Positions 46,992 through 49,535 of a stretch of 64,000 bases of DNA are shown here, in pieces; position 1 is the first letter of the stretch; each line of letters opens with the position of its first letter. The stretch lies in the NCBI GenBank assembly GCA_038801785.1, contig JAULTD010000003.1:218021-282020 (forward strand), in the 5' to 3' direction. The position numbers were made by a program, and so were the translations under genes. Below the pieces are notes generated by a model. That model worked only from the letters and a program-made list of their open reading frames with translations. It was not told where the DNA came from and ran no database searches. This stretch comes from Candidatus Methanomethylicaceae archaeon GD_Cm_T35_P0_bin.15. GTDB taxonomy: Archaea > Thermoproteota > Methanomethylicia > Methanomethylicales > Methanomethylicaceae.

Positions 46992-48161
46992 TCACGCCGT
47001 TGCCAGAATCGACGGGCCCTTCTTTATTGCCACGAGGGAGTCCTCTTCCCATATGAATTCGAGCCGCTGACGGTCTTCGTGCAGGCCTTTCTGGATCACT
47101 GCTCCGAATATGATGGGCAGGATTATCGTCGCTTCACCGTATACAGTCGACCTGACCGCAACTGAAGAGACCTTGCCCCACGACTTTGCCTCGTCCAAGG
47201 TGCTCCCGGACAGGCCACCCCAGTGCGGCGAGTCGGCAGTTATCTGGAAGATGTACGAATGGCCTTTGGTATAGTCGAACATCACCGCCGCGTCGTTGAT
47301 GTAATTCTTCGGCACGCCGCCACCGACATATATGGCACCGGTCTTACTTGACTTCAGCACGATCTGCCCGATCTCGAAGTTATCCTTTATCGTATCGATC
47401 ATGATCGGCGTGGCGTCTCCTGACCGCGCGTTTCGATAATGTTGGGCTATGCCTATCCCTATCGAGCTGTCGGCTATCGCGGGGCAGAAGACGGGCACAT
47501 CGTGGCAGAATGCCGAGCGGAGTATGGAATCATTGTCACTCAAGGTTCCCCCGAGCAGGTGCAAGAACTCCCGCGTAGAGTACCGCTTAGCCTCTAGCGA
47601 ATCGCAGAAGGCGGCTATGGAATCGTCGCACTTGACGAAGCCGACCTCGTCTACGTATGTGTTGTATATCCTGTTGATGTAGATGTCGTGCAGCTTTGCG
47701 TCATCTGAGGTGGGATCCCCCTGATAGTGGTCGTATCCCATCGCAGCATAGTAGTCTTGGTAAAGGATAGCGCCTGTAGAGACGACCACATCCACTATCC
47801 CGGTGGTGATCATATCACGGATAACCTTTCGTAGCCCGCCTGCGATGAGGGCGCCGGATAGACCCAGCATTATGGTGGGTCTGCTCTTGTCGGTGAGCAT
47901 ATTCTCGTAAACTTTGAAGCATTCCGCCAAGCTCCGCGACTGGATCCCGCAGTGGCTCCAAGCATCTACGAGGTCGCCGATTGTGTGTACCTGTGCAAAA
48001 TCTACCGGGCGTATCTTATCGTGCAGGAGGCTAGACCGCCTTTTTTCATCCAAGCCATGCTTGACCTTGAATTTGTGTATACATTTTTTCTTGTTACCGA
48101 TCTTGTTACCGATTTCCACATCTTCCCACCTCTTGCAAAGCATCAGGGAGTATGAACGCAC
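46992..48161 (-). CDS. dys: Deoxyhypusine synthase homolog carried inside the element (start uncertain)
   Basis: DHS motifs: TIMLGLSGALIAGGLRKVIRDMI, VDVVVSTGA, INRIYNTYV, and GGGVPKN (catalytic Lys region). Confidence 0.8.
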   Translation of the reverse strand: MRSYSLMLCKRWEDVEIGNKIGNKKKCIHKFKVKHGLDEKRRSSLLHDKIRPVDFAQVHTIGDLVDAWSHCGIQSRSLAECFKVYENMLTDKSRPTIMLGLSGALIAGGLRKVIRDMITTGIVDVVVSTGAILYQDYYAAMGYDHYQGDPTSDDAKLHDIYINRIYNTYVDEVGFVKCDDSIAAFCDSLEAKRYSTREFLHLLGGTLSDNDSILRSAFCHDVPVFCPAIADSSIGIGIAQHYRNARSGDATPIMIDTIKDNFEIGQIVLKSSKTGAIYVGGGVPKNYINDAAVMFDYTKGHSYIFQITADSPHWGGLSGSTLDEAKSWGKVSSVAVRSTVYGEATIILPIIFGAVIQKGLHEDRQRLEFIWEEDSLVAIKKGPSILATA

Positions 48162-48392
48162 GGGGCCGTCAGGTCGGATTGTTGTAGATAAAAGTGGTGA
48201 CCGCGGGCGATATCAGGCGATTTGGTGCCTGGGAAGCACAGTAACGCGCGTTAAAGTGAGGCGAATGCAGTGCGTTCTTTCCTAACGCTGTATTTTTGGT
48301 ATTTTGAACCTGCATATATAAGTTGCCTTCGACGATTGACGCAGCCTCCTCTTTGCGAGCGATGCGCCAAGGATCCCTAAACATGATGACGA

Positions 48393-49013
48393 TCAGTTCT
48401 TGTCTTTAACTACACAGAACTGATCTGATGATACGCAGAGAGGAGCTTTCCGGTATGTATTGACCATCTTGGAGCGGTCGCTCCCAGCGAGTTCGAACTT
48501 ATCGCTCATTGTAATCGCCTTCTTTGGGCAGATGTCCGCGCACTCCCTCTTGAGGACGAGGGAGCCAAGGACTTTGGCCGCCGCCTCCTGGTGCTCCTTG
48601 CCGGTGAGGACTATCCCATCGAACACTGTGACGGGGAGGGGCCTCTCGAACTTGAGCTTGTCCCTCAGGAGGGCGGGTATGTCGGAAAGCCACTGGACGT
48701 ACCGGTTGACTATGAAGATGTTGTAGCTCTTCGTGGAGCGGTCCAGCCACCCGACAGAGAAGTTGAGCCACTTCGGGGCTATCACGTACCACTCGTCAGC
48801 GCGGCGGGGGATTATGACGTAGGGCTCTTTGAGAAAGTCCTCCAGGAGGGCCGGGTCGACGTCCGATATCTTCAGGGCATCGAGCCTGGCGTCCATCTCG
48901 CTGCGGACATGCGACTGGAGCTCTTCTATGCGCTGCTTGGCCTCCTCGAGCTCGGCGAAGGTCTTAGAGACCGACTCCCTTAGGGAGGACAGGTCTAGGT
49001 TGGCGCTGGTCAT
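48393..49013 (-). CDS. Chimeric ORF: unknown coiled-coil N-terminal part fused to the 3' fragment of a NuoI/MbhN-like ferredoxin gene
   Basis: The last ~50 aa (ECADICPKKAITMSDKFELAGSDRSKMV...) parallel the C-terminus of the 63135-63536 protein (ECADICPKKVITMSDRFELAGDDRSKMV...). Similarity stops abruptly at nt 48545/48546. Confidence 0.6.
   Translation of the reverse strand: MTSANLDLSSLRESVSKTFAELEEAKQRIEELQSHVRSEMDARLDALKISDVDPALLEDFLKEPYVIIPRRADEWYVIAPKWLNFSVGWLDRSTKSYNIFIVNRYVQWLSDIPALLRDKLKFERPLPVTVFDGIVLTGKEHQEAAAKVLGSLVLKRECADICPKKAITMSDKFELAGSDRSKMVNTYRKAPLCVSSDQFCVVKDKN
48462..48545 (-). repeat. 84-nt segment homologous to 63195-63278
   Basis: Hand alignment gives 73 of 84 positions identical with no gaps. 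Weaker protein-level similarity continues to both stop codons. Confidence 0.85.
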
Positions 49014-49141
49014 CCGTGGACCTCCCTGCGGACCTTCCTCACTACGCCGGGGTACTCCTGGTCGATGGCGCGCCGCAGCTCTGAGGCCGCCTCCCTCGTG
49101 GCGGGCTGGAGCGGGTCTTTCAGGGTCGGATGTGAAGGCAT
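49010..49141 (-). CDS. Small hypothetical ORF (43 aa), translationally coupled to 48393-49013
   Basis: MPSHPTLKDPLQPATREAASELRRAIDQEYPGVVRKVRREVHG. Its TGA overlaps the downstream ATG (ATGA). Below the track cutoff. Confidence 0.3.
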   Translation of the reverse strand: MPSHPTLKDPLQPATREAASELRRAIDQEYPGVVRKVRREVHG

Positions 49142-49222
49142 AGCGCTTCCCGTTCCTGTCTGTAAGCGGGAGGGTAAAAGGACTCGGGGATGGTCGTTAC
49201 TGCGGGAGGGCAGGGCGAAAAT

Positions 49223-49236
49223 ATGAGTGCACTCAT
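49223..49236. promoter_or_regulatory. Perfect 14-bp palindrome ATGAGTGCACTCAT (candidate operator of the int(N)/divergent promoter region)
   Basis: Lies in the 163-bp divergent intergenic region, about 70 nt upstream of ATG 49305. Confidence 0.4.
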
Positions 49237-49304
49237 CAATATTTACCCCAGTAAACCACCGATAACCTCTTCCGTCTCTTCTGACATACGGTAGCCGAGC
49301 ACTT

Positions 49305-49535
49305 ATGCCCAGGAAAGGCTACACCACGATTACTGTACCATCAGACCTCTACGAGCGCATCAGGGCGATGGCAGAGGATGAAAGTAGTTCAATAGCCGAC
49401 TGCCTGAGGATGGTTTTTGATGAACCTTTTTCCAAAAAGGTTCGTTTCGTAAACCGTTGGTCAGGGGTTCAAACCCCCTCTGGGGCTCCACCAACCTCAG
49501 CTATTTTCCGAGCCCGCACAGCTCCTCCCGCATAG
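49305..49535 (+). CDS. Integrase N-terminal fragment int(N) with ribbon-helix-helix-like fold; reads through attR
   Basis: MPRKGYTTITVPSDLYERIRAMAEDESSSIADCLRMVF shows an RHH-like strand-helix-helix pattern. From codon 47 the ORF is encoded by the att core and then host flank. Confidence 0.65.
   Translation: MPRKGYTTITVPSDLYERIRAMAEDESSSIADCLRMVFDEPFSKKVRFVNRWSGVQTPSGAPPTSAIFRARTAPPA
49444..49490 (+). repeat. attR (47-bp direct repeat)
   Basis: Identical to 39607-39653. The flanks diverge immediately upstream, and downstream after CCA. Confidence 0.9.

Follow-up and report, generated by a model that had tools for sequence, protein, structure and literature searches.

The window analysed here is a 64,000-nt stretch of contig JAULTD010000003.1, from the genome of Candidatus Methanomethylicaceae archaeon GD_Cm_T35_P0_bin.15. 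Within the window, a tRNA-Thr(CGU) gene (39577-39653, plus strand) ends with a 47-nt sequence (39607-39653) that is repeated perfectly, as a direct repeat, at 49444-49490. These are the attL and attR cores respectively. Immediately after the tRNA gene lies int(C) (39654-40538, plus strand), which encodes a catalytic integrase fragment with Phage_integrase and Phage_integr_3 matches (PF16795, E 3.5e-7; PF00589, E 2.7e-10). Note that PF16795 is a domain of suicidal integrases (PMC8371274). The N-terminal integrase fragment, int(N) (49305-49490, plus strand), is a small 'RHH-like' ORF and ends where the attR core ends. Joining int(N) to int(C) produces an uninterrupted ORF of 357 amino acids. The interval is thus a 9.8-kb integrative element, inserted in tRNA-Thr(CGU), whose integrase is of the SSV type ('suicidal'), the kind that integration cuts in two. 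Besides the integrase, the element contains three unknown genes, two DUF7347 wHTH genes, a second deoxyhypusine synthase gene (DHS'), a chimeric ORF described below, and a 43-codon ORF (49010-49141, minus strand) that is translationally coupled to the chimera. The DHS' gene occupies 46992-48161 of the minus strand and, with its upstream region, extends from 46992 to 48342.

Known SSV-type elements (SSV1, pTN3, and pT26-2; PMC8371274, PMC7253208) likewise have int(N) and int(C) divided in the 3' half of a tRNA gene, and carry PF16795. Decay, and recombination between related elements, are common to those elements and this one; the att core is 47 nt here. The likeness to SSV-type families rests on domain content. 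The settings differ: the present host occurs in sludge, digesters, soil, sediment, and an oil field, whereas the described integrases are from hyperthermophile settings. The host genome contains mcrA, and the closest named protein homologs are from Bathyarchaeia and Methanomethylicaceae MAGs. There are two McrA-like genes, at G000:C2:151620-151994 (L090) and G000:C6:37441-37821 (L089). One of the pair is canonical (223 bits against PF02249) and the other divergent (70 bits); the latter may be of the alkyl-coenzyme M reductase type.

Related elements were also seen. The host genome has a second element, or remnant of one, at G000:C7:319545-328929 (L080). Its integrase is 43% identical, and it includes a 66-nt stretch identical to window positions 49258-49323 together with a copy of the control region at 49115-49223. 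In a related genome, locus L078 (G001:C14:15000-29000) includes three att sequences of the tRNA-Thr type, separated by about 3.4 and 7.5 kb. Two are tRNA-length matches and the third comes with int(N). The locus looks like a tandem array of related elements. The element ending in int(N) has a DUF7347 wHTH gene, and neither the helicase discussed below nor DHS'.

The chimeric ORF (48393-49013, minus strand) encodes 206 amino acids, and its ATG overlaps the TGA of the upstream 43-codon ORF. A preliminary description, made from the window alone, noted a resemblance to a gene 14 kb away. The match is real: positions 48462-48545 align without gaps to 63195-63278, with 73 of 84 nucleotides identical (87%, 11 mismatches; E 9.1e-23 against the whole 1.49-Mb genome). 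The latter is the only second match of the 84-nt stretch in that genome. It falls in the resident mbhN/nuoI-like gene for a 2x[4Fe-4S] ferredoxin (63135-63536, minus strand; Fer4_7, E 8.5e-14), which closes a group-4 [NiFe]-hydrogenase operon. The weaker protein similarity, said to continue as far as both stop codons, was also recovered (32 of 56 residues identical, BLASTP E 2e-18).

Despite this resemblance, a Pfam search with the 206-aa ORF matched no family. Ferredoxins of this kind have two CxxCxxCxxxCP motifs, with eight cysteines, and match a Fer4-family profile. The resident gene has these features and so does P0009, a complete 129-aa 2x[4Fe-4S] ferredoxin that ends with the same 51 residues as the chimera. 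The chimera itself retains just C-x3-C-P of the second motif (...ECADICP...), and so two of the eight cluster cysteines. Hence, as first proposed, the tail is predicted to be unable to bind a cluster. Compared to NuoI/MbhN-type subunits of complex I and group-4 hydrogenases, the tail is a genuine C-terminus, in the native frame and with the native stop, although of the eight cysteines only the last two (C-x3-C-P) are present. The marks of a helicase, namely Walker A (GSGKS), DExH, and two RecA-like domains, are similarly lacking. The chimera does have the conserved N-terminal block (PKWLNF.IGWLERSTKSYNIF.VNRYV) of a mobile-element helicase family. Since the defining features of both groups were tested and are missing, the predicted protein belongs to neither the ferredoxin nor the helicase family.

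The upstream part of the ORF had been taken for an unrelated coiled-coil protein. Instead, it is the N-terminal portion, 157 codons long, of an XPB-like SF2 helicase gene that belongs to the element itself. Residues 1-160 have homologs in Bathyarchaeia, Methanomethyliaceae, and Nitrososphaerota MAGs, and these run on through ...REGEDRLRIKKGYEFKL... into helicases of approximately 498-500 amino acids, with ResIII and ERCC3_RAD25_C or Helicase_C domains. By tblastn, residues 4-160 were matched in 14 genomic loci, and the chimera and eight homologs have invariant N-terminal columns in common. Our set for this mobile-element helicase family comprised P0011, P0012, and L031-L042. Some helicase homologs (P0019, P0039, and P0053) are 800-850 amino acids long, with intein or LAGLIDADG domains (PF14890, PF14528). 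No homolog has the 206-aa layout, and relatives of the N-terminal part all continue into a helicase. For this reason, the proposal that the ORF might be refuted as a chimera, by a conserved family of the same architecture, fails.

The closest intact protein, P0011, was retrieved after lengthening the query so that full-length proteins passed the length filter. It is 507 amino acids long, is encoded by contig L081 of soil run X6, and is 98% identical to the chimera over the common part. ResIII is at residues 230-331 and ERCC3_RAD25_C at residues 387-476. The chimera departs from the helicase sequence at residue ~157, ahead of both domains. At the DNA level, L081 is 97% identical to window positions 48548-49037, and the 24 nucleotides before the helicase start are the same in both. 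The helicase-derived part of the ORF, about codons 1-155 (to ~157), therefore maps to 48548-49013 of the minus strand. Chimera and L081 differ at 13 codons, 11 of them synonymously. At both amino-acid differences from P0011, it is the chimera that has the family-consensus residue. At 97% DNA identity, L081 is closely related to the true helicase parent but is not that parent. An intact helicase copy is absent from the host genome, which is a 75%-complete MAG.

After P0011, the nearest homolog is P0012, which is also the closest one with informative genomic surroundings. It occurs on contigs with Prim-Pol or D5-type primases, integrases, and MazE. These neighbours are mobile-element replication modules. 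The intact parent P0011 has two RecA-like domains in common with archaeal XPB/Rad25 helicases (6p4f, 5tnu, and 2fwr), and its match to these structures begins only at residue 186 (E 1e-27). Unlike them, the mobile-element family has its own N-terminal region of ~185 residues, with no Pfam family. The window's ORF is that region only, cut at residue ~157. Thus, all that the chimera keeps of a mobile-element helicase is the N-terminal region specific to the family. Other MAGs contain truncated or split versions of the helicase (P0005 and P0008), so decay of the helicase gene is common.

The second parent was found in the same soil run. Contig L003 (1806 nt) contains, in order, the end of an nuoH/mbhM-like gene, a ferredoxin gene (mbhN'), a 273-nt spacer, and a deoxyhypusine synthase gene. 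Positions 426-1806 of L003 are 100% identical to 48547-47167 of the window (1381 nt). Conversely, L003 positions 1-511 are only 84.6% identical to the resident region 63705-63195 (511 nt). The part of L003 missing from the window was sought elsewhere in the host genome and is absent. The identical section includes the ferredoxin-derived tail of the chimera, with the last mbhN' codons and the stop (48393-48542, minus strand), and the 50 nucleotides 3' of that stop (48343-48392, minus strand). These 50 nucleotides have no homology to the DHS' upstream region of relatives. Compared to the 3' flank of the resident gene, they score 29, which is not significant (shuffled sequences give 20.7 ± 3.8, with a maximum of 36). 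The tail is thus an exact copy of another allele, mbhN', along with its downstream DNA, and not the product of decay in a copy of the resident gene: L003 is 100% identical to it, and mbhN' and the resident allele are 85% identical to each other. Hence, the idea that the tail is a diverged copy of the gene 14 kb away does not hold: that gene reaches only 87% where the exact source allele is 100% identical over 1381 nt. The 84-nt peak of similarity is the conserved region of the second Fe-S motif.

A longer context for this allele was sought in further searches. No close relative was found when JGI metagenome contigs were scanned with P0009 (best identity 52%). With the resident NuoH/MbhM protein as query, there was no hit between 76% and 100% identity, and no longer contig of the L003 type was obtained. 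Two other routes were considered and rejected. The 5' part of L003 is not of the resident type, which rules out formation of the L003-type allele by deletion between the 84-nt repeats. Intragenomic duplication, as a source of the tail, is ruled out by L003 and P0009.

With both parents in hand, the junction can be read from a three-way DNA comparison. Across it, the helicase (L081) reads ...CTCAAGAGGGAGgGCGCGGA/TCGGCTC, the chimera ...CTCAAGAGGGAGTGCGCGGACATCTGC, and the ferredoxin gene (L003) ...TTCTGCGGGGAGTGCGCGGACATCTGC. The sequence GGGAG (48547-48543) is perfectly common to both parents. Over the wider crossover zone (48535-48547, minus strand), 12 of 13 nucleotides are common (GGGAG[T/G]GCGCGGA), and the chimera has the ferredoxin-type T at position 48542. 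In both genes, this 12/13-nt match encodes (G/R)E(C/G)AD. The crossover would lie within GGGAG, provided that the true helicase parent was similar to L081. The abrupt internal junction, originally placed at 48545/48546 from the window alone, was thus right to within 2 nt, and the reading of the ORF as a chimera is borne out by both intact parents. The fusion is in frame and its stop codon is the ferredoxin gene's own. The helicase and mbhN' genes are co-oriented.

The fusion is widespread. Contigs with no differences cross the junction in at least seven sequencing runs (X1, X2, X3, X4, X8, X9, and X10), as does an NCBI contig from a separate assembly (L028). The runs come from five studies and from oil field (X1), sediment (X2 and X3), biogas fermenter (X4, labelled RNA-Seq), sludge, and anaerobic digester samples, plus one of unrecorded origin; the contigs from all seven are Logan assemblies. 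In X1, one contig of 9662 nt covers the element from the attL core to 49287. Depth of the element matches that of the chromosome flanks (27.3 compared to 27.5 in X1, and 16.2 compared to 15.5 in X2), which is what one integrated copy should give. In digester run X7, the assembly branches at 48547: the fusion (2.6x) and the intact sequence (2.4x) share a common stem of 4.9x. Contigs of X4, a run with a metagenomic RNA-Seq label, cover 48215-48998, taking in the chimeric ORF as well as the spacer and a portion of DHS'. Either transcription or DNA carry-over could account for this coverage.

The soil run X6 (logan:SRR29307520), source of L003 and L081, has the intact arrangement. Three of its contigs, at 10.1-10.7x, are 100% identical to 43363-45735, 45777-47196, and 47167-48547, and the last extends into intact mbhN'. 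No X6 contig has the fusion. Together, L003 and these contigs give an intact mbhN', then the same 50 nucleotides, the spacer, DHS', and element genes, all at 100% identity. Note that this context was assembled from Logan contigs of 1.4-2.4 kb, joined by equal depth and end overlaps, and is not one contig. To the left of 43363, the sole X6 contig is 2% divergent, at 15x. The preliminary description suggested that the junction may record a former neighbourhood beside the 3' end of a nuoI/mbhN-type gene. The metagenomic strain agrees, since its intact gene is followed by the same element DNA. Furthermore, as aberrant excision predicts, the host DNA in the element is identical to DNA that flanks the element elsewhere. 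There was no sign of the nested second element that had also been suggested, and no att remnant at any junction either.

Contigs of X6 that are at least 99% identical to the host genome, at 8-15x, cover the left flank and 12 kb from the element to tRNA-Thr(UGU). Coverage also includes the 195-codon ORF, as far as 63020, and resumes in the hydrogenase operon at 63997, continuing rightwards. None at this identity lies over 63021-63996. In that interval, the only contig at ~10x is L003, aligned to 63195-63705. The summed depth over 63318-63533 is 44.7, made up of a 93%-identical sister species at 34.6x and L003 at 10.1x. The simplest reading is that X6 has a strain of the same species whose operon ends with mbhN', followed directly by DHS' and element genes. 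In the same reading, a tract of ~1 kb in this strain, covering the mbhM 3' end and mbhN (equivalent to 63021-63996), differs by 15% from the resident allele. Between the resident allele and the sister species, the difference is 6-10%, the same as in the rest of the region. Hence, the resident allele looks native. The mbhN' tract has the look of a recombination tract imported along with the element DNA beside it.

Gene order in relatives bears on where that DNA came from. DHS' is 74-78% identical, in nucleotides, to its orthologs in four related genomes, with homology ending at 48342 and ~47015. In all four, DHS' sits between rpiA and tRNA-Thr(UGU). In the host genome, rpiA is at 59072-59764 and the slot between it and tRNA-Thr(UGU) is occupied by an MFS transporter gene (60048-61232). 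Outside the element, the genome has no close copy of DHS'. A 14-nt tandem repeat is also present in the slot, at 61946-62015. The tRNA-Thr(UGU) gene (62076-62152, plus strand) is ~1 kb downstream of the resident ferredoxin gene and has a near-identical att core. It is likely an alternative attachment site. One X6 contig, matching 62076-62162, joins tRNA-Thr(UGU) directly to int(C)-like sequence (TCGGTGAAAAAGCTTCACC...), which suggests that the element family may use this tRNA gene as a second attachment site. We conclude that DHS', tRNA-Thr(UGU), and the ferredoxin gene are natural near-neighbours in the lineage. Given these neighbouring genes, the near-identical att core, and the tRNA-int(C) contig of X6, element DNA could land beside mbhN'. 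The border of the element DNA, which lies 50 nt beyond the mbhN' stop, is free of att remnants. Remnants of the att core were sought at 46732-46995, 48162-48400, 61233-62075, and 62153-63140, and none was found.

Taken together, the 206-aa ORF very probably results from one illegitimate recombination, guided by microhomology, between the element's helicase gene and mbhN', most likely in an excision resembling that of lambda gal. Both intact parents, the exact junction, the split integrase with its att repeats, and the fusion in many samples are observed. The element, or a very recent ancestor, would previously have been located directly downstream of mbhN'. The starting order would have been operon, mbhN', DHS', element genes, integrase, the 43-codon ORF, and helicase. 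Recombination between mbhN' and the helicase gene would then release a circle by aberrant excision. This circle would be the present element, with its integrase gene intact and the helicase ATPase core, two thirds of the helicase, lost. It would also take along 203 nt of host DNA, consisting of 153 nt of mbhN' coding sequence and 50 nt of 3' flank. Normal integration into tRNA-Thr(CGU), 14 kb from the end of the operon, would complete the process. The reciprocal junction that this route predicts, between the 5' part of mbhN' and the 3' part of the helicase gene, did not appear in the contigs. With its helicase lost and its integrase split, the element is likely trapped at the present site.

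Events of this kind, in which illegitimate recombination at an element border captures a fragment of a host gene, are well known. Lambda gal and bio excision likewise involves a single illegitimate crossover, between a site in the integrated element and flanking host DNA. Element genes are lost at one end and host DNA is carried, while attachment site and integrase are kept, so that re-integration is possible. In contrast to lambda, the host here is an archaeon, and attP lies within the gene of the SSV-type integrase. Just 203 nt of host DNA is carried, and it makes a fused ORF rather than transducing a gene. The border of departure has no att site, and the circular intermediate is putative.

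The same parents and junction could be connected by a different topology. This would involve either deletion in situ, or a single crossover between a superinfecting circular copy of the element and chromosomal mbhN', with subsequent release by integrase-mediated att x att recombination. For the deletion variant, the helicase must be upstream of mbhN' on one molecule, such as a larger island with hydrogenase genes as cargo, or with element halves on both flanks. Deletion would yield the same junction, because the genes are co-oriented. Moreover, it is documented that an incoming relative can excise elements with a suicidal integrase (PMC8371274), and a related element exists in the run that has intact mbhN'. 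There, helicase contig L081 is at 287x and the host-like strain at ~10x. Hence, a relative with an intact helicase is very abundant in X6; it may be a free, high-copy replicon or a virus. Against this, the intact mbhN' of X6 seems to be the terminal gene of the native operon, flanked by operon DNA at least 99% identical to that of the host. With mbhN' upstream of the element genes, the order yields a circle and not a fusion in situ. There was also no contig with hydrogenase genes in an att-bounded island. Consequently, we consider another topology possible but rather unlikely, and prefer excision of a circle from beside mbhN'.

Whatever the topology, the protein is probably an inert remnant, since no helicase motif is left and six of the eight cluster cysteines are gone. 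The chimera is still placed behind the promoter of the helicase operon and its coupled micro-ORF, and a maintained, functional protein can be imagined. For instance, the helicase N-terminal domain might interfere with the helicase of related elements, or titrate its partners. The ORF is intact, in frame, coupled to the micro-ORF and control region, and invariant across samples. As described above, it has the family-consensus residue at both differences from P0011, contigs of the run labelled RNA-Seq cover it, and a related high-copy element co-occurs with the host lineage. Against this, there has been no time for decay, and selection cannot be read from identity that is 100% throughout. A random fusion will be in frame one time in three, and broken copies of the helicase are common in other MAGs. 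The RNA-Seq-labelled contigs also span intergenic DNA, so they may be DNA carry-over. A functional fusion is therefore improbable. The more specific idea, that the protein is expressed and has been kept because it interferes with the helicase of related high-copy elements, is highly improbable. If true, it would make the fusion a superinfection-exclusion or copy-control factor born of an excision accident.

Two explanations fare worse. An old duplicate of the resident gene (63135-63536), diverged inside the element, would account for the 87% identity over 84 nt and the weaker similarity up to both stops. Such an origin is scarcely credible, given that another ferredoxin gene, itself intact, matches the tail and the 1.2 kb downstream at 100%, and that the resident gene is only 84.6% identical to this source over 511 nt. 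The chance that the junction is an artefact of assembling the MAG is negligible: the genome is only 75% complete and some samples contain a near-identical alternative path, but seven further runs from five studies and a separate NCBI assembly cross the junction without differences, and a single X1 contig of 9662 nt runs from the attL core to 49287.

For annotation, we advise that the ORF be labelled a fusion remnant, and neither a ferredoxin nor a new protein family. The mechanism itself is not new; what is new is an unusually well-documented case in an under-studied archaeal lineage. The locus offers a clean case, from nature, of the remodelling of archaeal integrative elements, for which the parents, the crossover nucleotides, and the product are all in public metagenomes. 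In the pathway that we propose, an element with a suicidal integrase, in an Mcr-bearing archaeon, would have moved between sites just 14 kb apart. These are the end of a hydrogenase operon, ~1 kb from tRNA-Thr(UGU), and tRNA-Thr(CGU). Such a move would have taken host DNA along and cost the element its replication helicase.
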